Below are positions 206-10,351 of a DNA stretch of 10,351 nt, one piece after another. Numbering within the stretch: position 1 is the first letter of the stretch; each line of letters starts with the position of its first letter. Origin of the DNA: a virus (lineage: Duplodnaviria > Heunggongvirae > Uroviricota > Caudoviricetes); the IMG/VR virus record IMGVR_UViG_3300032605_000010. One strand, written 5' to 3'. Under the pieces are notes generated by a model that was not told the DNA's origin, searched no databases, and worked only from the letters and a program-made list of their open reading frames with translations. The translations under genes were made by a program, and so were the position numbers.

Positions 206-1165
206 TTACTTTAGCATAACAGTTTTTGCTAATTTTTTCCAATCATTTCTATTCATGGTATAAAGAACAGCCAATTTTTCAACAGCCCTTAGAGATAATT
301 CTTTCATTTTATCAGAATTTTCCTCAATAAAGTTAATCAATATTTGATCTTCTTCAGGAGAAATGCCTTTATCCCTAAGCATACCTTTATTAACTGTTTG
401 TTTAATTTTCGTAATAAATTCCCGTTTGGTTTTAATTTTCATGTCCAACACTAGAGAACGTGATTCAAGAGCCGAAAGGTGAGGAGCATATTTTGTGTTA
501 CCATTCGCCATTTCAGAGAAATTAAGGTTAGTCAAGAAAATAATATTGCCTTCATATTGAAAGTATCTAGGAATTTGTTCACCAAAGTCATCAAAGAATT
601 CTTTCTCAGAACCCCAACCAATTGTTCTAGATGGTTTTAATTCTAATGCAGCTTTTAATAAATTCAAAGCAACTTCATCACCAAAGATGGCATCAGAATC
701 ATCAATAACAATTGTTTGACCAAGTAATTTATTTTCCCATAAGAGACGGAAAAGACCAGTGGCTTTAAGAAAACCTCTATGAAAGATATAACCAAACTCC
801 GAACCATTATTGATTTGGTTTAAGATTTTATTTACTTCATACGACTTACCTAATCCTGGAGCACCAGAACAAATAAGACTGTTCACTTTATTTGCCGCCA
901 CTGCTTCTACAAGTGTATCAAGGGTTGTATAGGTATCTTCAATCCTTTGATTAAGGTCTGCATCTGATTCTTCAATCATAGGAGAATCAATTTCCAGATC
1001 AACAGAAAATTTAAACACACCACGTTTCAGGGCATTTTGTTGATTACAGATGTGATTAGGATAGGTTGTTTGGTATTTAGAGACAACATCATTAATTTGT
1101 CGTCTAGTGATATAACCAAGTTCAGCAACTTCAGGAAACATTTCAACAGCATTCAATTCAAACAT
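206..1165 (-). CDS. AAA-type P-loop ATPase (319 aa)
   Basis: Walker A CSGAPGLGKS, Walker B IVIDDSD, IIFLTN sensor-like strand, ALESR arginine-finger-like motif. Start moved from the track TTG at 1183, which lies inside the cassette leader, to ATG at 1165 after GAGAGAG. Confidence 0.85.
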   Translation of the reverse strand: MFELNAVEMFPEVAELGYITRRQINDVVSKYQTTYPNHICNQQNALKRGVFKFSVDLEIDSPMIEESDADLNQRIEDTYTTLDTLVEAVAANKVNSLICSGAPGLGKSYEVNKILNQINNGSEFGYIFHRGFLKATGLFRLLWENKLLGQTIVIDDSDAIFGDEVALNLLKAALELKPSRTIGWGSEKEFFDDFGEQIPRYFQYEGNIIFLTNLNFSEMANGNTKYAPHLSALESRSLVLDMKIKTKREFITKIKQTVNKGMLRDKGISPEEDQILINFIEENSDKMKELSLRAVEKLAVLYTMNRNDWKKLAKTVMLK

Positions 1166-1231
1166 AAATTCTCTCTCTATCAATTTAGTATATCTTATTA
1201 TAATATTATTGGTTTAAAGTGTCAAGCACTT
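1166..1231 (-). promoter_or_regulatory. Cassette C1: sigma70-type promoter + leader + RBS
   Basis: AAGTGC-TTGACA (1220-1225), 17 bp, TATAAT (1197-1202), GAGAGAG, ATG. Confidence 0.9.
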
Positions 1232-1240
1232 TGTTGCACT

Positions 1241-1423
1241 TTATGCGAGTTTTTCTACTGAAAGAATATCAACATTACCTAATCTGAATAATGCAATCTC
1301 TTTTGCTTCTTCAGCAGTAAATGCCTTAACATAATCATATTTTACTTCAATTTCTTTTTTAAAGAAGTAATCATATGCTTCATATACAACTTCAAACTCT
1401 TTTAGTTTAGACCAATCGATCAT
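1241..1423 (-). CDS. hypothetical protein (60 aa)
   Basis: GGGAGAG RBS inside the end of the upstream ORF; ends just before cassette C1. Confidence 0.75.
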   Translation of the reverse strand: MIDWSKLKEFEVVYEAYDYFFKKEIEVKYDYVKAFTAEEAKEIALFRLGNVDILSVEKLA

Positions 1424-1424
1424 C

Positions 1425-1544
1425 TTACTCTCCCAAACCCAAATAATAATTAGTTAAGATTTGTTTCAATTTGTATTGGATGTAATAAACTACACCGAAA
1501 CCAACAAAGATTATTCCTAAAGACACATAACTAGCTATACTCAT
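1425..1544 (-). CDS. small membrane peptide (39 aa, MSIASYVSLGIIFVGFGVVYYIQYKLKQILTNYYLGLGE)
   Basis: ATG directly after cassette C2 RBS; one hydrophobic stretch; stop 1 nt before the next ATG. Not in the ORF track. Confidence 0.7.
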   Translation of the reverse strand: MSIASYVSLGIIFVGFGVVYYIQYKLKQILTNYYLGLGE

Positions 1545-1612
1545 TTTAATTCTCTCTCTATCAATTTAGTATAAGTTATTATACCTTAACGAATAGAAAG
1601 AATCAAGCACTT
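1545..1612 (-). promoter_or_regulatory. Cassette C2
   Basis: TTGATT (1601-1606), 17 bp, TATAAT (1578-1583), GA-rich RBS. Confidence 0.9.
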
Positions 1613-1627
1613 TGTTGCTCTTTTATT

Positions 1628-1703
1628 TGGAGCCACTGAGAGAACTCGAATCCCCAACCTTCTGATTACAAATCAGACGCACTACCAATTGTGCTACAGT
1701 GGC
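1628..1703 (-). tRNA. trnT: tRNA-Thr(UGU), CCA encoded
   Basis: 76-nt cloverleaf: GCCACTG/CAGTGGC, D stem GCAC/GTGC, TCTGA-TTTGTAA-TCAGA, T loop TTCGAGT. T stem is weak (A53-U61, two G-U pairs). Confidence 0.9.
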
Positions 1704-1706
1704 AAA

Positions 1707-1870
1707 TTAAATAAGTTATTGTTCTCAATCGAAGTCGAACCGATGTTTCTCAACTAGAGTGTCCTAGCCCAAACTAGACGACAGAAATAAATCTCCGATG
1801 GGATTTGAACCCATGTTTCTCAATTAGAGCGTCCTAAGCCTCTAGACGATAAGAGGAATAACTTATTTAA
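1707..1870 (-). ncRNA. candidate ncRNA: two tandem tRNA-Glu-like domains with shortened anticodon arms inside a 14-bp closing stem
   Basis: Inverted repeat TTAAATAAGTTATT at 1707-1720/1857-1870; two units with GTCT..GGAC D arm, CTC-5nt-GAG mini arm and 5-bp T arm; dedicated upstream promoter. Confidence 0.6.
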
Positions 1871-1873
1871 ATT

Positions 1874-1907
1874 ATTATACTTTAATCAGATGTATTTGTT
1901 AACCACT
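1874..1907 (-). promoter_or_regulatory. promoter without RBS module upstream of the candidate ncRNA
   Basis: AAGTGG-TTAACA (1897-1902), 17 bp, TATAAT (1874-1879); predicted start near 1867. Confidence 0.65.
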
Positions 1908-2053
1908 TTTTTACATCTTTTATAAACTTTTTTCGATTCGAACACTTTCGGTTTGTTATATTTCCAAGCATGTCAAGATGTTAATTGAATCATAAAACAG
2001 GCTTTAACAGCATCAAGGTCTGTTTTGTGAGTCTTTTTCTTTAAAAACGTCAA
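1886..2053 (-). pseudogene. possible interrupted small basic protein
   Basis: GAGAGA then TTG at 2053 (only 3 nt spacing); in-frame TGA at 1973-1975 followed by HAWKYNKPKVFESKKVYKRCKK. Confidence 0.3.
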
Positions 2054-2081
2054 AGTTCTCTCTTTGGGTATTGCTGTTTAA

Positions 2082-2243
2082 TTATACAACTTCTCTTTCT
2101 ATATAATAGAATTCAGACTCATACCTTCACTGTGAAAAAGTATATGCGGTCTGCTCATCTTCAAAAGTACCTGCGATTTTTGGTTCTTCCATGTAAGAAT
2201 CATCATAATACATTACATTATAAACATATTTCTCTTTATTCAT
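2082..2243 (-). pseudogene. cassette C3 gene with in-frame TGA (38 aa, or 53 aa with readthrough)
   Basis: MNKEKYVYNVMYYDDSYMEEPKIAGTFEDEQTAYTFSQ*RYESEFYYIEREVV*; TGA at 2127-2129. Confidence 0.55.
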
Positions 2244-2313
2244 ATTATATAATTCTCTCTATCAATTAAGTATAAGTTATTATATATAAGATAGAGAGAA
2301 ATATCAAGCACTT
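2244..2313 (-). promoter_or_regulatory. Cassette C3
   Basis: TTGATA (2302-2307), 17 bp, TATAAT (2279-2284). Confidence 0.9.
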
Positions 2314-2325
2314 TGTTTAAAAAAA

Positions 2326-2400
2326 TTAGAGAGCAAATTTGAGGACTCTTACCCCATCTTTTAATCCAAGCCTAAACACCAACTTGGAGATGCTTTCTAA
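2326..2400 (-). ncRNA. candidate 75-nt structured RNA, copy 1 (3' of tRNA-Met)
   Basis: Closing stem TTAGAAAGCA/TGCTCTCTAA, hairpin TCCAAG/CTTGGA, T-arm-like TGGGG-TAAGAGT-CCTCA; paralog at 2501-2576. Confidence 0.5.
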
Positions 2401-2420
2401 TGGTTGATCAGACCAACATT

Positions 2421-2495
2421 TGGTAGCAGGAGTTGGATTTGAACCAACGATCTTTGGCTTATGAGACCAACGAGATACCACTTCTCCATCCTGCG
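2421..2495 (-). tRNA. trnM: tRNA-Met(CAU), initiator (fMet)-type, CCA encoded
   Basis: 75-nt cloverleaf; unpaired C1/U72; A11-U24; anticodon arm TTGGT-CTCATAA-GCCAA; T arm GTTGG-TTCAAAT-CCAAC. Confidence 0.9.
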
Positions 2496-2500
2496 ATAAA

Positions 2501-2576
2501 TTAGAGAGCAAATTTGAGGACTCTTACCCCATCTTTTACCTAGACAATTAACCCCAAATCTAGTAATGTTTTCTAA
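2501..2576 (-). ncRNA. candidate 76-nt structured RNA, copy 2 (3' of the tRNA-Gln fragment)
   Basis: Same flanks as 2326-2400; the middle hairpin has a different sequence but still pairs (CTAGA/TCTAG). Confidence 0.5.
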
Positions 2577-2596
2577 TGGTTGATCAGACCAACATT

Positions 2597-2645
2597 TGAA
2601 GTTCCTACAGGATTCGAACCCATAATACCACAGTCAAAGTGTAGT
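2597..2645 (-). pseudogene. 3' half of tRNA-Gln(UUG)
   Basis: CTACA-CTTTGAC-TGTGG anticodon arm, ATGGG-TTCGAAT-CCTGT T arm, 3' acceptor strand AGGAACT-TCA; no 5' acceptor strand or D arm. Confidence 0.7.
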
Positions 2646-2653
2646 ATGTGTAT

Positions 2654-2686
2654 ATTATACTATCGGTATTACCAAATATCAACCAT
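2654..2686 (-). promoter_or_regulatory. promoter occupying the place of the tRNA-Gln 5' half
   Basis: TTGATA (2677-2682), 17 bp, TATAAT (2654-2659); the -35 overlaps the TGA stop of 2679..2933. Confidence 0.7.
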
Positions 2687-2933
2687 TGATTAAACTATTT
2701 TCAACAAGTTTAACATCTTTATGCATCACGTAAAATGAATCTGGAAATTCACTAAACGAAATCGCATAAACTTTTGACACACTTTTTTCTTCATTTTTTA
2801 TCAACACATCATAATTGTCAACTCTAACATTGGCAATGGTATCGATAATCGGTTCAAAACCACCAAAATCATATTCAACTTCTAAACCTTTAACACTGTT
2901 AATATCTTGTTTCATCATTTCTAATACAGTCAT
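2679..2933 (-). CDS. hypothetical protein (84 aa)
   Basis: ATG directly after cassette C4 RBS. Confidence 0.8.
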   Translation of the reverse strand: MTVLEMMKQDINSVKGLEVEYDFGGFEPIIDTIANVRVDNYDVLIKNEEKSVSKVYAISFSEFPDSFYVMHKDVKLVENSLING

Positions 2934-3000
2934 TTTAATTCTCTCTCAATTTCAAAGTATAAGTTATTATACCTTAACGATTAGAAAGAATCAAGCACTT
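2934..3000 (-). promoter_or_regulatory. Cassette C4
   Basis: TTGATT (2989-2994), 17 bp, TATAAT (2966-2971); spacer 16/17 identical to C2. Confidence 0.9.
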
Positions 3001-3015
3001 TGTTGCAGTTTTATT

Positions 3016-3090
3016 TGGAGCCACTCCACAGAATCAAACTGCGATCTAGAGATTACAAATCAGACGCACTACCAATTGTGCTACAGTGGC
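3016..3090 (-). pseudogene. chimeric/degenerate tRNA-Thr(UGU)
   Basis: First 40 nt and last 10 nt identical to 1628-1703; middle replaced; anticodon stem reduced to 2 bp; different intact T stem CGCAG/CTGTG; G7.G66 mismatch. Confidence 0.75.
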
Positions 3091-3093
3091 AAA

Positions 3094-3254
3094 TTAAATT
3101 ATAAAGACTGTAGGAATTGAACCTAACATAGAGACAGACCAAGCCACAACCAATGGTTATTTTTAAGTAGGAGAATTGAACTCCTTCGCAGGTCCTAGGG
3201 CTCCACTTTAACCAAAATAATCCTAAAAATAAAACATCAATCTTTATAATTTAA
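3094..3254 (-). ncRNA. candidate ncRNA: two T-arm domains inside a 16-bp closing stem
   Basis: Inverted repeat 3094-3109/3239-3254; T arms AGGAG-TTCAATT-CTCCT (3169-3185) and TAGG-TTCAATT-CCTA (3111-3125); same position relative to tRNA-Thr as 1707-1870. Confidence 0.5.
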
Positions 3255-3324
3255 ATTGCCCTCTTCGACTATGTATCCATAATCCTATCGACTTTAGGCT
3301 TTGCCGTTTTCCTAATTTTGGATG

Positions 3325-3438
3325 TTAATTTCCTATTAAAGAAACTAATATAACAGTCACAATAAATAACTGCCCGATTATATTCATTGGTAAAGTTACA
3401 ACAAATTCTTTTGGCTGCCTTACTTTATAATCTTTCAT
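3325..3438 (-). CDS. small membrane peptide (37 aa, MKDYKVRQPKEFVVTLPMNIIGQLFIVTVILVSLIGN)
   Basis: ATG after cassette C5 RBS; hydrophobic C-terminal stretch. Not in the ORF track. Confidence 0.65.
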   Translation of the reverse strand: MKDYKVRQPKEFVVTLPMNIIGQLFIVTVILVSLIGN

Positions 3439-3506
3439 TTTATTTCTCTCTCTATCAATTAAGTATAAGTTATTATATATAAGATAGAGAGAAATATCAA
3501 GCACTT
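3439..3506 (-). promoter_or_regulatory. Cassette C5
   Basis: TTGATA (3495-3500), 17 bp, TATAAT (3472-3477); spacer identical to C3. Confidence 0.9.
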
Positions 3507-3528
3507 CTGTATTTAATATAAAGATAAT

Positions 3529-3999
3529 TTATGCTGCTTCTTCCTCTTCGTAAAGTGCCATATTTTCAGAGATGGCAAAACAATCATCAATTTCTTTGGG
3601 GATATTTTCTTCCACCCAATTAGAATCACCTTGGATACTGTATTCATCTTCCTCACCATCCTTGAATGCCCCACAGAAGCCAATACCGCCTTCGTAATAA
3701 AAAGCTGTAACAGTAAACCCAAGTTCCTCAAGTTTTTGGTATCCTTCTATTGGAGGGCTCCAAGCTGAATCAAAATACACCCCGACTGAAGTATCTGTTT
3801 GTTCATAAATATATGCTTCTACAACGTCCCATTTGGTTCCCCAATTTTCCACTACGAAGCCATATTCCGATTCACAATCAGCTGGGATAGGTATAAATTC
3901 ACGAAGGAAACTATCGTTCTCCAAGGCTGCCACAGCTCTTTGGATCATAATTGGATCATCATGTTCTAAACGTAAATCATTTGAGCACCAATTAGGCAT
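3529..3999 (-). CDS. DUF1281/YubB ferredoxin-like family protein (156 aa)
   Basis: Motifs MPNWCSN, ENWGTKW, FDSAWSPP, YYEGG recognised from memory; AAGGAG RBS. Confidence 0.75.
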   Translation of the reverse strand: MPNWCSNDLRLEHDDPIMIQRAVAALENDSFLREFIPIPADCESEYGFVVENWGTKWDVVEAYIYEQTDTSVGVYFDSAWSPPIEGYQKLEELGFTVTAFYYEGGIGFCGAFKDGEEDEYSIQGDSNWVEENIPKEIDDCFAISENMALYEEEEAA

Positions 4000-4000
4000 C

Positions 4001-4111
4001 TTATTCTCCTTTCAATTTAGATTCAACAAAGTCAACCACATCAACAACTGTTAAGGTAAATAACCAGAACAAACAACCTAAAACTACGAAGTATTGGATA
4101 AATTCTAACAT
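4001..4111 (-). CDS. small membrane peptide (36 aa, MLEFIQYFVVLGCLFWLFTLTVVDVVDFVESKLKGE)
   Basis: ATG after cassette C6 RBS; its last codons supply the RBS of the next gene. Not in the ORF track. Confidence 0.7.
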   Translation of the reverse strand: MLEFIQYFVVLGCLFWLFTLTVVDVVDFVESKLKGE

Positions 4112-4175
4112 TTTATTTCTCTCTCAATTAAGTATAAGTTATTATAATCTAAGTGCTTAGAAGAATCAAGCACTT
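4112..4175 (-). promoter_or_regulatory. Cassette C6
   Basis: TTGATT (4164-4169), 17 bp, TATAAT (4141-4146). Confidence 0.9.
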
Positions 4176-4375
4176 TAAGCAAATATTTCTTTACTAAGAA
4201 TTTCTTCTTCTACAGTTTTGTGACAAGCATTTAACATCAACAATGCTACTTGGGTCGCAATACATCTTTCTTGTCCAGAAAGTGTCTTGGTATATTCAAG
4301 AACTTCATCGATGCTTTGGGTTGAGAATAAATCAAATTTTGGAATTGGATTTGGAACAGGTCTATTATCAATCAT
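4175..4375 (-). CDS. hypothetical protein (66 aa)
   Basis: ATG after C7 RBS; TAA stop abuts the AAGTGC of C6. Confidence 0.8.
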   Translation of the reverse strand: MIDNRPVPNPIPKFDLFSTQSIDEVLEYTKTLSGQERCIATQVALLMLNACHKTVEEEILSKEIFA

Positions 4376-4442
4376 TTTTTTCTCTCTCTATCAATTAAGT
4401 ATAAGTTATTATAACCGATACAGATTTAAAGATCAAGCACTT
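4376..4442 (-). promoter_or_regulatory. Cassette C7
   Basis: TTGATC (4431-4436), 17 bp, TATAAT (4408-4413). Confidence 0.9.
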
Positions 4443-4675
4443 TCAATAATATCTAATTGGATATTAACACCATCATATCTACCACCGATACCTAGGATCG
4501 TTTCAGTACGATTTTTGTATTCTAAACCAATCAATAAATTGTTTACATTTATGTTAAATTTACCATTCTGGCCTGTACCCTCGCGGATTTGTTTGACAGT
4601 GGTGTAAAATGATCCACCGATATCAGCCAATACGATTTTCACTTTAGTGCTAGGTTTAAATTTAAATTCTTTCAT
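4433..4675 (-). CDS. hypothetical protein (80 aa)
   Basis: ATG after C8 RBS; ends AGT GCT TGA inside the C7 -35. Confidence 0.8.
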   Translation of the reverse strand: MKEFKFKPSTKVKIVLADIGGSFYTTVKQIREGTGQNGKFNINVNNLLIGLEYKNRTETILGIGGRYDGVNIQLDIIESA

Positions 4676-4743
4676 TACGATTCTCTCTCTATCAATTAAG
4701 TATAAGTTATTATAACCGATATAGATTTAAAAATCAAGCACTT
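4676..4743 (-). promoter_or_regulatory. Cassette C8
   Basis: TTGATT (4732-4737), 17 bp, TATAAT (4709-4714); spacer 16/17 identical to C7. Confidence 0.9.
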
Positions 4744-4749
4744 TAAGAA

Positions 4750-4959
4750 TTATTTTGTTGAATAATGAACAGGTCTTTCGTATGATCCTGTTGATGATCT
4801 ATACACACTTACATATCTAAAGTCTTCAGCAATAAAGCTCTCGGTTTGATCACGGTCTATGTTCAACCCTAATGGCCAAACCTCAACCAATCCTTCTGAT
4901 TCTAATGCATCATTAAGGGTCGGGAACCAATTATTTTTTACTTCATATCTTCTTTTCAT
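4750..4959 (-). CDS. hypothetical protein (69 aa)
   Basis: Start moved to ATG 4959 after GGAGAGG; the track TTG start lies inside the C9 leader. Confidence 0.8.
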   Translation of the reverse strand: MKRRYEVKNNWFPTLNDALESEGLVEVWPLGLNIDRDQTESFIAEDFRYVSVYRSSTGSYERPVHYSTK

Positions 4960-5022
4960 CTTTCCTCTCCAATTCAAATTATAAGTTATTATAAATTAAT
5001 AGGAAAATAATGTCAAGCACTT
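4960..5022 (-). promoter_or_regulatory. Cassette C9
   Basis: TTGACA (5011-5016), 17 bp, TATAAT (4988-4993). Confidence 0.9.
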
Positions 5023-5053
5023 CGTAGCACTTCGTAGCACTTCGTAGCACTTC
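5016..5053. repeat. 10-bp tandem repeat AGCACTTCGT x3.8
   Basis: Directly visible; it amplifies the AAGTGCT element upstream of the C9 -35. Confidence 0.95.
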
Positions 5054-5395
5054 TTAAATCTTATACAGAGCAGAATACCAACTTGTGCATTGCTCGGTAT
5101 ACAAACCCACAGCTTCTAATGCTTCGCTCATCTTATTAATAAGTTCATAATTATAATTATCATAACTGAAATAATCACCTACAGATCCACCATCATGACA
5201 GATGATTAATTCTGAATGAGTACCATAATCTTCTTTTCGTTCTCTCCATCTTACAGGAGAATAAAAGGTTGTACATCCACCTGTATCGATTATTTTTTCT
5301 TCCATTACTTCCATAATGGTTTTATATGCAAGTTTCCCAACATCGGAAAGGTGTTCTGGCATTTGAGTATCTTCGGGTGAATAATTATTAAACAT
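5054..5395 (-). CDS. hypothetical protein (113 aa)
   Basis: ATG after C10 RBS; GGC..FYSP..W and HDGG segments look conserved but the family is not recognised. Confidence 0.85.
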   Translation of the reverse strand: MFNNYSPEDTQMPEHLSDVGKLAYKTIMEVMEEKIIDTGGCTTFYSPVRWRERKEDYGTHSELIICHDGGSVGDYFSYDNYNYELINKMSEALEAVGLYTEQCTSWYSALYKI

Positions 5396-5463
5396 TTTAT
5401 TTTCTCTCTTTTCAATTAAGTATGAGTTATTATAACCTTGTTGCTGGGAAATGTCAAGTATTT
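5396..5463 (-). promoter_or_regulatory. Cassette C10 (variant: no AAGTGC, 12-bp inverted repeat around -35)
   Basis: TTGACA (5452-5457), 17 bp, TATAAT (5429-5434); arms 5441-5452 and 5460-5471. Confidence 0.85.
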
Positions 5464-5479
5464 CCCAGCAAGGGCGTGG

Positions 5480-6133
5480 CTATGCAGTCTCTAACATTAA
5501 TCGGAATACTTTTTTCATTTTACGTCCATGTTGAGGATAAGCAATAACGTCTATATCCTTCGAATAACACGCTCTACAGCTCGAACATTTTCCCTCACGG
5601 TCATAGGCTTCGCAAACAAAAACACCTGCTGGTGCACTCTCAGCATCCGGAATGATTACCGATCCATGAATCCCTGGAGTAAATTCGCCAGTAATTGAAT
5701 CAGAAGAGAATCTTACCTTAACATTAGGTAAGGCATCCATTTCGGCAATTATTTTTGCGAATTTTGCAAATTTACCCATCCTTGTTGGCAACCAATATTG
5801 TGTGTTTGGAGTTGCTTTCATTACACTTAATATCTTTTTAGCAAGCTTTAAAGAATACATATCACCACTATCAAAAAACCTGAACCACTTTGCTTTTTTC
5901 ATCTCAGCAGTCATATCAGAGACCCATTCAGGACGTCTCCAATCTTCTTTATTCTCAGCTCTTGGTTCTTTTACGTTTGGGAATGCATAGTTACCAGTGG
6001 TGGCATAACAACCTGAACAAGCTGGAACCAACTCACCGTCCTCGTTTAATGATCCAGGGCAAGTTTCAAGAGCTTGTAAGCTCCAACTTTTCACGTTATC
6101 AAGTTTAGAAGTTTTAGAAATTCTTACAGTCAT
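5480..6133 (-). CDS. GP88-family Cys-rich protein (217 aa)
   Basis: CPG..ACSGCYA, FRFFDSGD, WLPTR, NVKVRFS and C-terminal KCSSCRAC motifs recognised from memory as phage gene product 88 family. Confidence 0.75.
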   Translation of the reverse strand: MTVRISKTSKLDNVKSWSLQALETCPGSLNEDGELVPACSGCYATTGNYAFPNVKEPRAENKEDWRRPEWVSDMTAEMKKAKWFRFFDSGDMYSLKLAKKILSVMKATPNTQYWLPTRMGKFAKFAKIIAEMDALPNVKVRFSSDSITGEFTPGIHGSVIIPDAESAPAGVFVCEAYDREGKCSSCRACYSKDIDVIAYPQHGRKMKKVFRLMLETA

Positions 6134-6200
6134 TTTAATTCTCTCTCAATTAATTAGTATAAGATATTATAACATATTAGGTTTCAAAGGTCAAGCACTT
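6134..6200 (-). promoter_or_regulatory. Cassette C11
   Basis: TTGACC (6189-6194), 17 bp, TATAAT (6166-6171); 6131-6200 is identical to 6615-6684. Confidence 0.9.
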
Positions 6201-6216
6201 CGTTGCCAAGTATATC

Positions 6217-6387
6217 CTATAAAATTACTTTTTCAGACAACATGATAAATTGTTTGAGCCCAAAATCGTCAATAATCCAACCACAAAACGGGTCTGGGGA
6301 AGAATAATGATCTTGTGGGTCAATCACCTCATACCATTTTTCTGGGGTGATTGACAGGGAGATTGAAGTTGCGGTTTTAACTTTCAT
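6217..6387 (-). CDS. hypothetical protein (56 aa, MKVKTATSISLSITPEKWYEVIDPQDH...)
   Basis: TAATG stop/start overlap with 6387..6617; fills the gap to C11. Not in the ORF track. Confidence 0.7.
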   Translation of the reverse strand: MKVKTATSISLSITPEKWYEVIDPQDHYSSPDPFCGWIIDDFGLKQFIMLSEKVIL

Positions 6388-6617
6388 TAGGTGAAGATGT
6401 TGTATTGAGCTTCAAGGTTTGCGAACTCAGCTTCAAGGATGACCATTTGTTGCTTAGATAAGTTTAGGCGATCTATAAAATAAGCCAGTGAGGTGGTCGC
6501 TGCTTCTAAAGTATAAAGATAATTTATATCAGATCCATAAGTGTCGTACTTAGATCTTTCTTGAGCCACTTTAACAGTTAGATCAACAAGGGCGAAGACG
6601 GAATCAGTTTTAATCAT
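6387..6617 (-). CDS. hypothetical protein (76 aa)
   Basis: ATG after C12 RBS. Confidence 0.8.
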   Translation of the reverse strand: MIKTDSVFALVDLTVKVAQERSKYDTYGSDINYLYTLEAATTSLAYFIDRLNLSKQQMVILEAEFANLEAQYNIFT

Positions 6618-6684
6618 TTTAATTCTCTCTCAATTAATTAGTATAAGATATTATAACATATTAGGTTTCAAAGGTCAAGCACTT
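6618..6684 (-). promoter_or_regulatory. Cassette C12
   Basis: TTGACC (6673-6678), 17 bp, TATAAT (6650-6655). Confidence 0.9.
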
Positions 6685-6889
6685 CTAACGGTCGCTTCGA
6701 AAAATAATTCACTTAATTTTTGGATAAGTTCTTCTTTACTTAAATCAATTAAATAACTATTGTTTTTTCCTCTTAAATTAAGGTAAGTTTTATCTTTTTT
6801 CATTGAACTTTCAACTACAAAATGTTCATGTTCACTTAGGAAAAAAGTGAACGACCCACCGCCATCACGTGGTAAAGTAATTTTTTCAT
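6675..6889 (-). pseudogene. frameshifted gene (71 aa if the A6 run were A7)
   Basis: ATG AAAAAA gives a 17-aa ORF; the shifted frame ITLPRDGGGSFTFFL...EATVRSA is open to TGA in the C12 -35. Confidence 0.7.
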
Positions 6890-6955
6890 TTTATTTCTCT
6901 CTCTTTATTAAGTATAAATTATTATACTAAAGACCCATCCTTAGGTCAAGCACTT
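6890..6955 (-). promoter_or_regulatory. Cassette C13
   Basis: TTGACC (6944-6949), 17 bp, TATAAT (6921-6926). Confidence 0.9.
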
Positions 6956-6960
6956 TTAGA

Positions 6961-7176
6961 TTAAATTTCTATTAGAAGTTTTCTTATCGCAGAAATTTCT
7001 TGGCTATCCCATTCTTTAGAATATTTTTTCTCAGGAAAATGTATAAGGATTAAATACTGAATATTTTCTAAAGTATATTTTAAGGTATCGATGTTAATTT
7101 TACCATCATTATAGTCATCTCCAGCGAAAAGGACTTGAACCAACAAAGAATTAAATAAGGCTTGTTTTTTTGACAT
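6961..7176 (-). CDS. hypothetical protein (71 aa)
   Basis: ATG after C14 RBS. Confidence 0.8.
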   Translation of the reverse strand: MSKKQALFNSLLVQVLFAGDDYNDGKINIDTLKYTLENIQYLILIHFPEKKYSKEWDSQEISAIRKLLIEI

Positions 7177-7241
7177 TTTTCTCTCTCCTTTCTTAAGTTA
7201 TGATTCATTATACCTTAAAAAAAGAGAGAATACAAGCACTT
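7177..7241 (-). promoter_or_regulatory. Cassette C14 (divergent leader)
   Basis: TTGTAT (7230-7235), 17 bp, TATAAT (7207-7212). Confidence 0.85.
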
Positions 7242-7244
7242 TTT

Positions 7245-7661
7245 TTACCCGATGTTTATTGATCGAACAAGTTCCATTCTGTATTCATTATTCGGTCCTT
7301 CAAAATATACAATCACATCATCAATTTCAGCACCAATCCGAATGTATTCAATATTCAGGTCAGGATAATTAAATGTTGAATTATAAAACAAATCGTCAAA
7401 GAAACTTACAGCTGGAAAATCAACATCACCCGAGTACCATTTTTCCCGCGTCGCCTGAAATAACAATTCATAATAACCATTTTCAGCTACATGAAACAAA
7501 GTTTTACCAGTTAAATTAAAAGAATTTTGTTCAAGATCCATTACCTTTAATTGTACTTCTTCAGGAAGTTCGGCGAATTTATCTTCATATTCATAACCAA
7601 ATTCTTCCATTTGGACAGCACCACCGTAAATCCTTACAGCCACGTCAGATAAATAAGCCAT
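7245..7661 (-). CDS. acidic hypothetical protein (138 aa)
   Basis: AGGAG RBS in the end of the upstream ORF; TAA abuts C14. Confidence 0.85.
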   Translation of the reverse strand: MAYLSDVAVRIYGGAVQMEEFGYEYEDKFAELPEEVQLKVMDLEQNSFNLTGKTLFHVAENGYYELLFQATREKWYSGDVDFPAVSFFDDLFYNSTFNYPDLNIEYIRIGAEIDDVIVYFEGPNNEYRMELVRSINIG

Positions 7662-7663
7662 AA

Positions 7664-7858
7664 TTAAACTCCTGCAAAGGTATTAGAGATAGAGAAACGT
7701 GGAGCATCGCCACCAACGGGTTTACCTCTAGATTCCTTAGCACGACATGTTGATTTAATTTTAATTTGTTTAGCAGGAACTTCTTTAATTGAATTGCCAT
7801 TTAGAACGAATTCTAGAGTGTCGTTTAGAAGTTTTTGTCTCAATTCAGTTTTAGTCAT
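7664..7858 (-). CDS. basic hypothetical protein (64 aa)
   Basis: Start moved to ATG 7858 after the C15 RBS. Confidence 0.8.
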   Translation of the reverse strand: MTKTELRQKLLNDTLEFVLNGNSIKEVPAKQIKIKSTCRAKESRGKPVGGDAPRFSISNTFAGV

Positions 7859-7924
7859 TTTTTTCTCTCTCAATTAATTAGTATAAGTTATTATAACCGA
7901 TGTAGTTTTATAATACAAGCACTT
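7859..7924 (-). promoter_or_regulatory. Cassette C15
   Basis: TTGTAT (7913-7918), 17 bp, TATAAT (7890-7895); spacer shared with C16-C18. Confidence 0.9.
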
Positions 7925-7926
7925 TA

Positions 7927-8364
7927 TTAATATTCTTCGTCTGGATCAAAGTATTCATCATCTTCGTCCTCAGGCTCCCATGCAGTGTCTATACAAACGT
8001 TTCCGAAGTCAAATATACCACTCTCGGCGATTACAGAAAACGGAGCGTAGAAGTCGTGTACGACGCCATCAGTTACATTTTTTTGATCTTCCTGAGAAAT
8101 ATCTTTAGTTGCGATTATACCTAATAAACCAGCATCTACACCATAAGTATTGCCTAAATTATCTTGATATTCGCCATCACCATAAGCTGTCATCGCTAAA
8201 AAAAACCTACGACCGTCCGATAAATTAAAAGCACCGTTAATTAAATTATTACCTTTAATTGTTAAATCGCAAACTTCTTTCCACTCATCATGCATCACAT
8301 AACTTAGGTCGCCGATATAATATTCGCCAGCAGGAAATTCAGCAGAAACTTTTTCATATCTCAT
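7927..8364 (-). CDS. acidic hypothetical protein (145 aa), possibly DUF4241-like
   Basis: GEYYIGD, TAYGDG, YGVDAG motifs; D/E-rich tail. The family guess is weak. Confidence 0.8.
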   Translation of the reverse strand: MRYEKVSAEFPAGEYYIGDLSYVMHDEWKEVCDLTIKGNNLINGAFNLSDGRRFFLAMTAYGDGEYQDNLGNTYGVDAGLLGIIATKDISQEDQKNVTDGVVHDFYAPFSVIAESGIFDFGNVCIDTAWEPEDEDDEYFDPDEEY

Positions 8365-8430
8365 TTTATTTCTCTCTCTTTATTAAGTATAAGTTATTAT
8401 AACCGATGTAGTTTTATAATACAAGCACTT
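8365..8430 (-). promoter_or_regulatory. Cassette C16
   Basis: TTGTAT (8419-8424), 17 bp, TATAAT (8396-8401); 8362-8430 is identical to 9019-9087. Confidence 0.9.
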
Positions 8431-8599
8431 AATAATATATTATCAAATTATTTTCGGTTGGGTCTATTTCTATATCAAAAGCTGGGTCTAATATAACATC
8501 CTTTATTCTAGCTTCGCTTATAAATATTTCGTTGTTTAGATCTACACCTTGGGCTTCCGCTTGTAATAATAAATCTAATAAATCTTTAGCTGTAATCAT
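8429..8599 (-). CDS. acidic hypothetical protein (56 aa, MITAKDLLDLLLQAEAQGVDLNNEIF...)
   Basis: ATG after C17 RBS; TAA overlaps the AAGTGC of C16. Not in the ORF track. Confidence 0.75.
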   Translation of the reverse strand: MITAKDLLDLLLQAEAQGVDLNNEIFISEARIKDVILDPAFDIEIDPTENNLIIYY

Positions 8600-8667
8600 T
8601 TTTATTTCTCTCTCAATTAATTAGTATAAGTTATTATAACCGATGTAGTTTTATAATACAAGCACTT
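8600..8667 (-). promoter_or_regulatory. Cassette C17
   Basis: TTGTAT (8656-8661), 17 bp, TATAAT (8633-8638). Confidence 0.9.
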
Positions 8668-8688
8668 TTTTTCTAATGGGACACAAGA

Positions 8689-8717
8689 TTTTTCCCGCGT
8701 CCCATCAAGTTAAGTAA
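8689..8717. repeat. 29-bp dispersed repeat (second copy 9107-9135)
   Basis: TTTTTCCC(G/C)CGTCCCATCAAGTTAAGTAA, 28/29 identical. Confidence 0.9.
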
Positions 8718-8721
8718 TAGG

Positions 8722-9021
8722 TTAACATTCTTCTACTTTAGCTTCAACCTTAAATTTTCTTACCCAATCGTAAATTTGGGAATCGTTAAGTAACTCCATA
8801 CCTTGAACTATAAATTTAGCGATAGATGAATTTAACTTAGTTTGTTGAGCGTATTCGGTTGAAATTTCATTTTCATCGTCGTAAACATATAACCATATTC
8901 CGTAAGCATCAACAAGTATGGTACCGATATTTTCATCTACGGCATAATAAGGATCAGAACCATCTTCAAAACTAGAAGCACCTAAATAAGCTTCATCCCA
9001 ACCTTTAGTAAATTTTATCAT
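8722..9021 (-). CDS. acidic hypothetical protein (99 aa)
   Basis: ATG after C18 RBS. Confidence 0.85.
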   Translation of the reverse strand: MIKFTKGWDEAYLGASSFEDGSDPYYAVDENIGTILVDAYGIWLYVYDDENEISTEYAQQTKLNSSIAKFIVQGMELLNDSQIYDWVRKFKVEAKVEEC

Positions 9022-9087
9022 TTTATTTCTCTCTCTTTATTAAGTATAAGTTATTATAACCGATGTAGTTTTATAATACAAGCACTT
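9022..9087 (-). promoter_or_regulatory. Cassette C18
   Basis: TTGTAT (9076-9081), 17 bp, TATAAT (9053-9058). Confidence 0.9.
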
Positions 9088-9138
9088 TTTTACATTTATT
9101 TTTTAATTTTTCCCCCGTCCCATCAAGTTAAGTAAGCA

Positions 9139-9372
9139 CTAAATTGTCGCGATTAATTTCCCATTAGGCAAATAACTAATGAATACCTTAGCAGCATTTA
9201 ATACACCATCAAAACTTTCTGGTGCATAAAATTCAACTTCATAAGCGGCAGCATACTTTTCTTTATCATAAGTATCTACTAAATCAGCAGATTTTATACG
9301 GTCACAGACCCATCCCTCACCTAAGAAAATTAAGGTTTCAATTTCGGCTTTTGATAAATTTTTAGGATTCAT
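9139..9372 (-). CDS. hypothetical protein (77 aa)
   Basis: ATG after C19 RBS. Confidence 0.8.
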   Translation of the reverse strand: MNPKNLSKAEIETLIFLGEGWVCDRIKSADLVDTYDKEKYAAAYEVEFYAPESFDGVLNAAKVFISYLPNGKLIATI

Positions 9373-9439
9373 TTTATTTCTCTCTCAATTAATTAGTATA
9401 AGTTATTATAACTCAGCTGTATTTTAAACACAAGCACTT
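9373..9439 (-). promoter_or_regulatory. Cassette C19 (first of the array in transcription order)
   Basis: TTGTGT (9428-9433), 17 bp, TATAAT (9405-9410). Confidence 0.85.
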
Positions 9440-9485: not shown

Positions 9486-9520
9486 AAGTGATTGACAAAC
9501 ATGCTCAGATTTTATATAAT
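9486..9520 (+). promoter_or_regulatory. divergent consensus sigma70-type promoter
   Basis: AAGTGA-TTGACA (9492-9497), 17 bp, TATAAT (9515-9520). Confidence 0.85.
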
Positions 9521-9634
9521 AAGTCATAATAATAAGAAAGCGGAAAAAACCGTATGAAGGCTGTGAAGCTGGTCCCCAACTAGCTGGCCACTTCGTTTTA
9601 AATTTAAAACTTAATTTACTCATTAATTACTTTC

Positions 9635-9750
9635 CATAAGTAATCACTTAGATTACATAAGTAATCACTTAGATTACATAAGTAATCACTTAGATTACAT
9701 AAGTAATCACTTAGATTACATAAGTAATCACTTAGATTACATAAGTAATC
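9635..9750. repeat. 21-bp perfect tandem repeat CATAAGTAATCACTTAGATTA x5.5
   Basis: Units start at 9635, 9656, 9677, 9698, 9719 and 9740 (partial). Confidence 0.95.
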
Positions 9751-9788
9751 GGATACTTTGATCGGAAATCCGACGAATTTTTTTACCG

Positions 9789-9834: not shown

Positions 9835-9943
9835 TAAGGTGTAAATATAATGTTTTCTGAGGTTTTCTTGAGGGTAAGTTGCACCTTATAGAAACATGAA
9901 TTAGTTAGGAGTTAATTAATGGATTGGTATGTCTTTACTTAAC

Positions 9944-10057
9944 ATAAGTATTTGGATACTTTGGATAAGTAATCACTTAGATTCCATAAGTAATTCATTA
10001 GCTAATAAGTTAGGACTTAGTTACGATAAGTTAGGACTTAGATTCCATAAGTATTTA
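9944..10057. repeat. degenerate copies of the 21-bp repeat
   Basis: ATAAGTAATCACTTAGATT at 9965, then ATAAGTTAGGACTTAG variants. Confidence 0.85.
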
Positions 10058-10081
10058 CATACTTTGAATAAGTCCTGGATT

Positions 10082-10299
10082 ATAGCGTTTCGGGTTTTGA
10101 AAATAGCGAAACAAATAGCGAAGCAAATAGCGTTTCGGCTTCTGCCTCGTCTTCTGATTATAGCGTTTGCAAATAGCGTTTTCGGTTTTGAAAATAGCGA
10201 AACAAATAGCGTTTCGGTTTCGAAATAGCGAAGCAAATAGCGTTTTCCGTTTTAAGCGGACTTCCTAGCGGACTTCGTAGCGGACTTCGTAAAATAGCG
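10082..10299. repeat. array of 11 co-oriented ATAGCG motifs
   Basis: At 10082, 10103, 10115, 10127, 10160, 10173, 10194, 10206, 10225, 10237, 10294. Confidence 0.9.
10255..10290. repeat. 12-bp tandem repeat AGCGGACTTC(C/G)T x3
   Basis: Directly visible. Confidence 0.9.
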
Positions 10300-10351
10300 T
10301 TTTCCCCTCTGGGAATTCGGGTTCGAAAATAATGCTTGACGAACTAATGTT

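Follow-up and report, generated by a model that had tools for sequence, protein, structure and literature searches.

A probable PeSL-like, recombination-prone array of early-promoter cassettes in an uncultured freshwater phage

Introduction

Why should a phage place nearly the same promoter and leader before almost every small gene of a region, and how do such repeats come to stand before unrelated genes? These questions are raised by a stretch of phage DNA of 10,351 nucleotides, called here the window, in which an earlier note had described an array of self-contained promoter cassettes and proposed that it is shuffled by recombination. In our opinion, this is probably a PeSL-like, recombination-prone array of early-promoter cassettes, the repeats of which serve both as expression units and as portable homology. 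The repeated modules of sigma-70-consensus promoter and leader and the hypervariable character of the region have stood from the earlier interpretation; the word self-contained has not.

Structure of the Repeat Unit

The motif TTG-N20-TATAAT was found 21 times in the window, 20 times on the minus strand and once on the plus strand, against a mean of 0.43 and a maximum of 3 in dinucleotide-preserving shuffles. Nineteen of the minus-strand copies belong to promoter-leader units of 66-73 bp with a joint span of 1163-9439, which confirms the units described earlier. Each is composed, in this order, of AAGTGC (AAATAC in one of the 19), an adjoining TTG-type -35 element, exactly 17 bp, a perfect TATAAT, a conserved AU-rich leader, a GA-rich ribosome site and ATG. 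The leader of 28-35 nt between the -10 element and ATG (consensus AAcTTATACTtAATTgAtAGAGAGAGAAatAAA) is present at 19 of the 20 minus-strand sites, and a conserved start region (..ATACT..) is also carried by the units. The ribosome site had been placed directly against ATG and lies instead about 5-9 nt upstream of it. The conservation of AAGTGC exceeds that of the 3' half of the -35 element, and the box is retained even where this element is TTGTAT. The promoters of the window and their cargo are as follows.

9492-9520, plus strand: divergent member of the promoter family, AAAGTGATTGACA-17-TATAAT, at the strand switch at the array head
9370-9439, minus strand: unit C19, with -35 at 9428-9433, -10 at 9405-9410 and ATG at 9372; cargo g77 (9139-9372)
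9019-9087, minus strand: unit C18; cargo g99 (8722-9021)
8597-8667, minus strand: unit C17; cargo g56 (8429-8599)
8362-8430, minus strand: unit C16; cargo g145 (7927-8364), charge -24, PHROG family phrog_20074
7856-7924, minus strand: unit C15; cargo g64 (7664-7858) and g138 (7245-7661)
7174-7241, minus strand: unit C14, with variant leader GGAGAGAG; cargo g71 (6961-7176)
6887-6955, minus strand: unit C13; its ATG opens 17 codons only
6615-6684, minus strand: unit C12, exact repeat of C11; cargo g76 (6387-6617) and g56b (6217-6387)
6131-6200, minus strand: unit C11; cargo g217 (5480-6133), Pfam family GP88 (PF17338)
5393-5463, minus strand: unit C10, AAATAC replacing AAGTGC; cargo g113 (5054-5395)
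4957-5022, minus strand: unit C9; cargo g69 (4750-4959)
4673-4743, minus strand: unit C8; cargo g80 (4433-4675)
4373-4442, minus strand: unit C7; cargo g66 (4175-4375)
4109-4175, minus strand: unit C6; cargo g36 (4001-4111, hydrophobic) and g156 (3529-3999)
3436-3506, minus strand: unit C5; cargo g37 (3325-3438), followed by tRNA-like RNAs and a tRNA-Thr variant (3019-3090)
2931-3000, minus strand: unit C4; cargo g84 (2679-2933)
2654-2682, minus strand: 20th promoter, TTGATA-17-TATAAT, without AAGTGC or leader
2241-2313, minus strand: unit C3; cargo g38 (2127-2243), then tRNA-like RNAs and tRNA-Thr (1628-1703)
1542-1612, minus strand: unit C2; cargo g39 (1425-1544) and g60 (1241-1423)
1163-1231, minus strand: unit C1; cargo NrdC.10-like AAA ATPase (206-1165)

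The -35/-10 pair of the units is near the sigma-70 consensus, and both promoter activity and early timing are predicted from this match. A T4 middle (MotA-dependent) promoter was considered and rejected: TGCTTGA occurs, with its last A 19 bp from TATAAT, at the normal -35 position. The T4 MotA box, TGCTTtA, has its centre at about -30 and a distance of 11-13 bp to the -10 element. A search with the MotA profile gave no match, and the control was likewise silent. Mot-box PmSLs are mentioned for T4-type phages (PMC4122927).

The units are packed at 2.4 per kb, with about 20 promoters in 8 kb. As a rule, the gap from a stop codon to the next -35 element does not exceed 12 nt, and four stop codons fall within the TTGA of the -35 itself; the TGA of g80 lies in the -35 of C7, and that of g84 in the -35 of the following promoter. 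Terminators numbered 7 as against 4.5 expected, which is no enrichment, and none was found between cassettes. A regular stem-loop upstream of the units is absent: among the 19 upstream 50-mers, a single one folds strongly (C17, z -7.2), where the 3' flank of g99 contains a 16-bp hairpin (about 8675-8712, -22.8 kcal/mol), and two others with z < -2 (C8 and C4) are weak or tRNA-derived folds. With such terminators, folds and gaps, the cassettes are not self-contained.

Several sites depart from the common plan. It had been stated that each cassette carries cargo, and the ATGs do open reading frames, except that the one in C13 gives a frame of only 17 aa. The long frame is offset there by one base at an A6 run past the ATG and ends at 6675, within the next -35; the arrangement is the same in the related contig L082. 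The number 19 holds for full units and leaves out the leaderless 20th promoter, which is directed towards the 3' half of a tRNA-like sequence and the tRNA-Met slot (2421-2495). In C10, the -35 is straddled by an inverted repeat, GCTGGGAAAT/ATTTCCCAGC. Upstream of C9, a 10-bp unit, GAAGTGCTAC, containing most of the AAGTGC box, is present in four tandem copies (5017-5053).

Distribution of the Promoter Family and Its Cargo

The array extends beyond the limits of 1166-9439 assigned to it earlier: the 37-kb viral contig contains 33 such minus-strand promoters, which continue leftward out of the window and become sparser. Outside this contig, the same family was found in 5 viral contigs and 70 metagenome contigs, which gives 478 copies in 76 sequences, preceding 145 cargo families. 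Its density reaches 2.6 per kb on contigs longer than 5 kb and is higher on short ones. The 20 runs holding the sequence are lake or freshwater samples, none of them RNA. Such promoters are a marker of one lineage of uncultured phages from fresh water.

In relatives, the arrays run from a conserved strand-switch region to a conserved gene of the NrdC.10-like ATPase at the far end. Of 36 cargo families, 30 are followed by neighbours of at least two kinds, and the more distant relatives G001, L104 and L078 contain the same cargo families in different orders. When relatives are compared, as the earlier note had suggested, both the order and the set of genes are seen to vary.

The homologues of T4 genes in 279 kb of lineage contigs, which are fragments, are only NrdC.10, gp39, gp44, RNase H, ligase and DexA; homologues of T4 structural genes were not found in this fragmentary material, and a gp23 profile search gave no match, its control being silent too. 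A search of these contigs (G000-G004, about 279 kb, fragments) for integrase and resolvase (PF00589, PF00239) gave no match, the controls giving hits, and the description of the array as integrase-free agrees with this result.

The cargo consists of small, mostly acidic proteins without assignable function; g156, with a charge of -29, has an Api92/DUF1281-like double ferredoxin fold. No paralogues were found among the cargo of the window. Selection on the cargo genes is purifying (pN/pS = 0.24 across 19 shared genes), and their role is probably host takeover or counter-defence.

Concerted Evolution of Promoter Spacers

The spacer families noticed earlier (C2/C4, C3/C5, C7/C8, C11/C12 and C15-C18) are real. 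C11 and C12 are identical over 72 bp (6130-6201 and 6614-6685) rather than 70 bp, and the same 20-nt stretch, comprising the -35 tail and the spacer, is identical in all four units from C15 to C18. Neighbouring spacers are 0.547 alike as against 0.414 for random pairs, a value reached in 0 of 10,000 permutations. A twin promoter with at least 80% spacer identity exists for 51% of promoters within a contig and for 0.8% between contigs, and near-identical promoter pairs stand before unrelated cargo in 87 cases out of 87. In orthologous promoters, spacer identity falls to background with cargo divergence. Within a genome, the spacers undergo concerted evolution, being homogenised locally whatever the cargo.

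Rearrangements between Strains

The strain comparisons were made on metagenome assemblies, which may mis-join at 70-bp repeats; the contig Ga0214178_1000157 (L082 plus L093), 98-99.9% identical, shows at least five cassette-level differences with breakpoints within units, each variant junction being represented by one or two contigs. The g77 cassette is missing from the 98%-identical L082 and present in L120, which has a third arrangement. Gene g56 stands upstream of g99 in L082 and is missing from L120, and the 3'-flank hairpin of g99 moves together with this gene in both. An additional 53-aa gene (g53) lies in L082 between the C8 leader and g80, flanked by the ribosome-site repeat AGAGAGAA; the 20th promoter is present there in two copies with an 86-aa gene (g86) between them, and tRNA-Gly occupies the tRNA-Met slot. 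In L082, a promoter of C6 type with a 65-aa gene stands in place of C2 and g39, the replacement starting inside the spacer and ending within g60. In contigs from three other runs, the C1-C2 slot is occupied by about 279 letters of different sequence. L120 and L082 agree in the g99-to-g145 junction, down to a 7-bp difference that separates both from the window next to the repeat, and since this exact variant is found in both, they represent haplotypes rather than products of misassembly. The contig L111, which seemed to have lost the stretch between the 72-bp repeats by a clean deletion, was discarded as a chimera with bacterial genes.

The crossover sites are the 70-bp identical core, the position after CATACT or the AGAGAGAA ribosome site. 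Crossovers within 60-70 bp of perfect identity left no junction scar, otherwise identical genes carry swapped leaders in the two strains, and the changes are distributed along the array and not clustered at one insertion end. The proposal of recombination between repeats is supported by the strain changes that break inside them and does not cover some gains and losses without repeats: plain gene boundaries are the site of two replacements at 15-17 kb of G000 and of several differences that separate G003 from G005.

Proposed Mechanism and Alternatives

The window may be regarded as the head of what is presumably the early-gene region of a large, uncultured phage from fresh water, in which nearly every small gene or gene pair owns one copy of the 66-73-bp expression unit. 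Host RNA polymerase would start at about 20 promoters in 8 kb, and because there are no terminators between units, nested read-through transcripts would be formed, with each gene translated via its own leader. The repeats would double as portable homology. Recombination between copies, within a genome or between co-infecting relatives, could delete, duplicate, move or replace the intervening genes and homogenise adjacent promoters; such is the pathway that we infer at the repeats, and a dedicated recombinase would be unnecessary for it. The outcome would be a mosaic array drawn from a common pool of small cargo genes. By its resemblance to the known PeSL cassettes, the array is a clear new example of them and not a new principle.

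The repeats may instead be strong early promoters kept alike by selection, with turnover due to general short-homology or illegitimate recombination, the intergenic survivors of which are selected; as a recombination substrate, the promoters would then have no particular role. Selection alone would also leave breakpoints in intergenic repeats, whatever the mechanism; the intergenic DNA is almost all promoter, and therefore surviving breakpoints must land in promoters. Several structural differences are without a promoter repeat at one or both ends, and T4 rearranges through 2-10 bp homology (PMC9391042). Nevertheless, we consider this explanation unlikely, since the 17-bp spacer, free of polymerase-contact constraint, is identical in neighbours and only at background level in diverged orthologues, and since scarless crossovers inside 60-70 bp of perfect identity and the exchange of leaders between otherwise identical genes of two strains also speak against it. 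It is likewise doubtful that, as one bolder reading would have it, the AAGTGC box and start region are bound by a phage or host factor timing early transcription and directing recombination, and the array is an integron-like gene-capture device without integrase; if true, such a device would keep at least 145 families of small genes, and even tRNA genes, pooled across a whole freshwater lineage outside the T4 family.

There is very little probability that the cassette differences are assembly artefacts, produced by short-read path choice through 70-bp repeats or by strain mixing, even though L111 proved chimeric, the Logan contigs (k=31) are interrupted at each promoter and a single contig is behind most variant junctions. 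Path choice cannot make new sequence, and therefore the 53-, 86- and 65-aa genes and tRNA-Gly of L082, none of which is found at these sites in G000, count against this explanation; so do the junction common to L082 and L120, which come from different samples, the other cargo orders of G001, L104 and L078 and the differing C1-C2 slots of three other runs. Dedicated gene capture, with the AAGTGC box or the unit as the integron-like target of a phage site-specific recombinase or DNA-binding factor, is highly improbable: the conservation of AAGTGC above the -35 3' half, even beside TTGTAT, the tandem copies of its larger part at 5017-5053 and the conserved bounds of the arrays are in its favour, and against it are the failure to find a tyrosine or serine recombinase in 279 kb of lineage contigs, breakpoints scattered over the unit (core, start region and ribosome site) with no single point, cassettes bearing promoters and not attC-like hairpins, and changes all along the array instead of at one insertion end.

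Comparison with Known Systems

PeSLs, or promoter-early stem-loops, are found in the T4-type phages RB49/phi1, T4/PST and KVP40/nt-1, where mini-circles form by recombination between neighbouring elements, and the comparison with them drawn earlier is apt (Arbiol et al. 2010, PMC2839356; Comeau et al. 2014, PMC4122927). In both systems, the repeated unit combines a sigma-70 promoter close to the consensus, its spacer 17 bp long, with a Shine-Dalgarno site and the start codon, and it stands between small function-unassigned genes of a hypervariable region; close relatives differ by insertion, deletion, replacement and displacement at the units. PeSL crossovers were mapped between the -10 element and ATG, as in this array. 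In contrast to PeSLs, the stem-loop/terminator half is absent here (a strong hairpin in 1 of 19 units), and the units are therefore not insulated from each other; they are also denser (2.4 per kb), more alike (up to 72 bp identical) and supplied with the extra AAGTGC box and conserved start region. PeSLs lie in hyperplastic regions of T4-like myovirus genomes, whereas here few replication-type T4 homologues and no structural one were found in 279 kb of fragmentary contigs. To our knowledge, no dedicated recombinase is known for PeSLs or for this array.

The host-takeover module of Bacillus phage SPO1, reportedly described by Stewart et al. in 1998, comprises some 24-26 short early genes in one cluster. 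It is situated in the terminal redundancy, is read at the start of infection and encodes small host-remodelling proteins, the timing and several functions having been shown experimentally. Runs of short genes, each gene or pair with a strong host-sigma promoter and a strong ribosome site, are common to the module and, by prediction, to this array, for which early timing and host-directed functions are predicted. We know of no description of shuffling at promoters in SPO1. The module finds mention in passages of PMC6873191 and PMC7414437.

Integrons resemble the array in having short, unrelated, exchangeable genes split by a repeated element, with order and content variable among close relatives. 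Their cassettes are promoterless, each with an attC hairpin at its end, and a tyrosine recombinase (IntI) brings them to one insertion point, with an attI site at the head of the array. Here, by contrast, there is a promoter per cassette, attC-like hairpins are absent, no integrase was found in the fragmentary lineage contigs and the changes are array-wide.

Repeated upstream regulatory units are also represented by the CUP (conserved upstream) repeats, which are longer and fewer and belong to a plasmid, not a phage. According to a passage of PMC6289460, which cites Delver and Belogurov 1997, they lie in the leading region of IncN plasmids, precede establishment and anti-restriction genes expressed first on entry and contain the binding site of the regulator ArdK. 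By analogy, this site suggests that a regulator-binding role of the AAGTGC box is possible.

Organization of the promoter array

Cassette turnover by recombination without an integrase, as proposed in the earlier note, is supported by cassette differences between strains and by the concerted evolution of promoter spacers, and no integrase was found; the interpretation given in that note is, as a whole, partly supported. The window corresponds to bases 21825–32175 of a 37,389-bp IMG/VR viral contig (G+C content 31.6%, CheckV completeness 21%), and the sequence is present in 20 lake-water or freshwater metagenome runs; no RNA run appeared among the runs listed.

The pattern TTG-N20-TATAAT occurs at 21 sites in the window, 20 of them on the minus strand, against 0.43 expected from shuffled sequences, and one unit of 66–73 bp is shared by 19 of the 20 minus-strand sites (C1–C19, numbered from left to right). 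It consists of the box AAGTGC, a −35 element beginning with TTG, exactly 17 bp, TATAAT, the conserved start region AAcTTATACT and an AU-rich leader, whose ribosome site is GA-rich, ahead of the ATG that opens a reading frame. The repeated promoter-leader modules described previously, 19 in number with TATAAT and exact 17-bp spacing, were confirmed, and the spacer families were borne out, including the 72-bp exact repeat of C11/C12 and four identical spacers in C15–C18. The array is present at 1166–9439, where it had been placed, yet it extends past the window: the whole contig contains 33 minus-strand promoters, with 2.4 per kb in the window and a thinner distribution leftward. Further promoters of the family are as follows.

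2654–2682, minus strand: 20th promoter, without the leader, facing a tRNA-like RNA
9492, plus strand: promoter of the same family (pattern match)
9806, plus strand: promoter of the same family

Since the family is also found on the plus strand at the last two positions, the array begins at a divergent promoter region.

The match to the consensus suggests promoter activity and early timing. The 19 units would drive 23 small ORFs of 36–217 aa (including an out-of-frame 42-aa ORF behind C13), the gene of a 319-aa ATPase and several tRNA or tRNA-like genes. The distance from a stop codon to the next −35 element is mostly ≤12 nt, and four times in the contig (window 4433, 2679 and 6675; position 12409 of the viral contig, G000:C1) an upstream gene and the following promoter overlap, the gene's TGA stop being part of the −35 TTGA. 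Terminator-like sites were not enriched (7 against 4.5 expected), none of them lay between cassettes, and a strong hairpin was found in only one upstream region, after g99 (cargo genes are named approximately by product length in aa). In view of these short gaps, the lack of terminator enrichment and the single hairpin, the units are promoter-plus-leader modules without insulation, and calling them self-contained was wrong; transcription from each unit should read through into the next.

Several smaller elements accompany the array. Just upstream of C9, at 5017–5053, stand four tandem copies of a 10-bp unit, GAAGTGCTAC, that contains the greater part of the AAGTGC box. A promoter-like site on the minus strand at 1874–1902 (TTAACA-17-TATAAT, with AACCAC replacing AAGTGC) precedes a tRNA-like pair at 1704–1873. 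The plus strand at 9492–9612 has a promoter that matches the consensus perfectly and, no more than about 80 nt beyond it, a hairpin and a U run (MFE −20 kcal/mol, z −2.2); this may be the site of a short non-coding RNA transcribed away from the array. Between the divergent promoters (window 9632–9757, 9940–10084 and 10082–10252) lie 5.5 tandem 21-bp units CATAAGTAATCACTTAGATTA, degenerate copies of these and a second repeat set containing AAATAGCG; the copy number in this region is unlike that in a related contig. These repeats look like iterons and could represent an origin or a regulator array.

Gene order among strains and relatives

All gene orders were compared in short-read assemblies. 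The metagenome contig Ga0214178_1000157 (in two pieces, L082 and L093) is 98–99.9% identical to the viral contig across 18.8 kb, yet the two differ by whole cassettes. The order is g77-g99-g56-g145 in the window, g56-g99-g145 in L082 and g77-g99-g145 in L120, another metagenome contig. In this reshuffling of g56, g77 and g99, the 3′ flank stays with each gene, and the joins fall within about 70 bp of perfect identity. The g99-to-g145 junction is exactly common to L082 and L120, including a 7-bp difference from the window beside the repeat, which argues for real haplotypes.

L082 has two additional genes. One, of 53 aa, follows the C8 leader and precedes g80, with the ribosome-site repeat AGAGAGAA as its boundary; the other, of 86 aa, is enclosed by two promoters of the 2654 type, and the break falls directly after CATACT. 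In the same strain, a C6-type promoter and a 65-aa gene replace C2 and g39, starting inside the spacer and ending inside g60, away from repeats, and leaders are swapped between otherwise identical genes of the two strains. The slot at 2324–2597, occupied in the window by tRNA-Met(CAT) (2421–2495), contains tRNA-Gly(TCC) in L082:9690–9910 between the same flanking repeats with GGGGTAAGAGTCCTCA; thus, tRNA genes are also swapped as cassettes, on a different repeat scaffold. Changes without the use of repeats include two replacements further left and several differences between two viral-contig relatives, G003 and G005, all of them at plain gene boundaries. Turnover can be gauged from the strain variants: for every eight or nine point substitutions in shared genes, there is about one cassette change.

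In distant relatives, the same cargo families stand in other orders, with more than one kind of downstream neighbour in 30 of 36 families, and it is the ATPase gene that is conserved at the arrays' far end. Carried out as the earlier note had advised, the comparison between relatives showed that neither gene order nor content is invariant, be it in L082, L120 or the distant relatives.

Logan contigs stop at each promoter repeat, and circles or deletions are not visible in them; joints with short sides (1614 to 2940, 4147 to 4383 and 3846 to 3978) were left out as repeat-path ambiguities. The loose ends seen at 4383 and 4443 correspond to other copies within the same genome, and the C1–C2 slot has different letters in Logan contigs of three other runs. 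The metagenome contig L111 (Ga0214245_1011558) was dropped as a case of clean deletion between 72-bp repeats, being a chimera with bacterial efflux-pump genes: at L111:1–884, the N-terminal part of g217 is fused in frame to HlyD- and AcrB-type genes. Given this chimera, any evidence on repeat junctions that comes from short contigs calls for caution.

A 19-bp promoter-like sequence TGCTTGACGAACTAATGTT forms an inverted pair around a segment of about 5.2 kb (window 10333–10351; G000:C1:37371–37389; L082:1895–1913). The viral contig ends exactly at the second copy. In the related contig, the segment is attached to the array side by its far end and in reverse orientation, which suggests inversion between inverted promoter copies.

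Concerted evolution of promoters

Spacers of adjacent promoters are more alike than those of random pairs, the observed value being reached in none of 10,000 permutations. Lineage-wide, spacers before orthologous genes fall from 0.88 identity to a background of about 0.36–0.39 as the genes diverge. A twin with ≥80% spacer identity was found for 51% of promoters within a contig versus 0.8% between contigs, and in each of the 87 near-identical pairs within contigs, the genes behind the two promoters are unrelated. Local spacer identity combined with unrelated cargo indicates that promoters are copied or converted locally, independently of genes, and this is the footprint of frequent recombination between repeats. 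Growth of the array by duplication of whole genes with their promoters is out, as the window holds no cargo paralogues and none of the 87 pairs has related cargo.

Lineage and known systems

A DNA search of cultivated phages gave no near match, the distant matches being tRNAs only. Searching viral contigs for a protein pattern of the ATPase gave no match, but relatives were recovered with the promoter pattern: IMG/VR yielded 16 stretches, on 8 contigs, and 70 contigs came from metagenomes, with names pointing to freshwater lakes. Across 76 sequences, 478 promoters were found, up to 2.6 per kb on contigs >5 kb and denser on short ones, with the consensus AAAGTGCTTGAC-N17-TATAAT-aAnTcATAcTtAat; a related array in another genome has the motif AAAGTGCTTG. 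The 478 promoters stand before 399 promoter-proximal ORFs, which fall into 145 families with 53 singletons among them. The lineage is that of a large phage with topoisomerases, an NAD-dependent ligase, a Lon-like protease and tail-fibre genes, and its closest cultivated-phage matches are only about 40% identical. Since only a handful of replication-type proteins and no structural ones match those of T4, the lineage cannot be called T4-like; profile searches for gp23 and MotA gave no match, and their controls were silent too. The closest viral-contig relative with a dense array, L037 (8221–13346), carries genes of a phosphate-selective porin (Porin_O_P) and a CHASE2-adenylate cyclase, which are either unusual phage-borne host-like genes or the result of chimeric assembly.

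The closest known system is the promoter-early stem-loop (PeSL) of T4-type phages, a composite found in hyperplastic regions, in which a stem-loop is joined to a sigma-70 promoter, a Shine-Dalgarno site and a start codon. This element is implicated in indels between close relatives, has crossovers mapped between −10 and ATG, and was shown to give mini-circles (PMC2839356, PMC4122927). The present array works alike, but lacks the defining stem-loop; PeSLs sit in T4-like genomes, and this phage cannot be called T4-like. The array is not an integron: no integrase was found in about 279 kb of contigs of the lineage, attC is absent and each cassette has a promoter. With the SPO1 host-takeover module and the plasmid CUP repeats, the analogy is one of function only. 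A T4 MotA middle promoter was rejected, as TGCTTGA in the box resembles a MotA box but stands at the ordinary −35 distance.

Promoter-mediated gene shuffling, known from three pairs of cultivated T4-type phages, is thereby extended to an abundant uncultured lake phage lineage, where it operates without the stem-loop part of the element. The array is notable for its density, missing stem-loops, extra AAGTGC box and strain-level evidence. The shared promoter serves as a search handle, since a single 45-nt pattern led to candidate early genes of 145 families, which could be taken directly into screens for host takeover and counter-defence.

Cargo genes

The cargo genes are collectively real, as pN/pS is 0.24 over 19 genes shared with the 98–99.9% identical strain. 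Their products are mostly small and acidic (pI 4.1–4.7, charge as low as −29). Only three could be placed in a family: the ATPase, which resembles T4 NrdC.10, g217, a member of Pfam GP88, and g156 (window 3529–3999, minus strand, charge −29). For g156, a fold with two ferredoxin-like halves was confidently predicted (pLDDT 95.6); the model matches only Api92/DUF1281 (PDB 2ijr), and g156 belongs to a very large viral family of >3,300 mostly unnamed proteins. The remaining cargo consists of ORFan families seen in viral metagenomes only, and function searches (Pfam, PHROGs, PDB sequence search, Atlas) yielded unnamed viral families only.

Behind C13 (window 6675–6889), the ATG opens just 17 codons; one more A in the A6 run that follows it would bring into phase a 70-codon frame ending in the next −35 element. 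The same state of the frame in L082 shows that this is no sequencing slip; the gene could be in decay, translation could begin at an internal start and yield 42 aa, or slippage could occur on the A run.

Outside the window, two tandem RHS-repeat paralogues of 244 and 328 aa, 48% identical, lie on the minus strand at G000:C1:12409–14185, each behind an identical promoter; only one other pair of paralogues was found in this contig.
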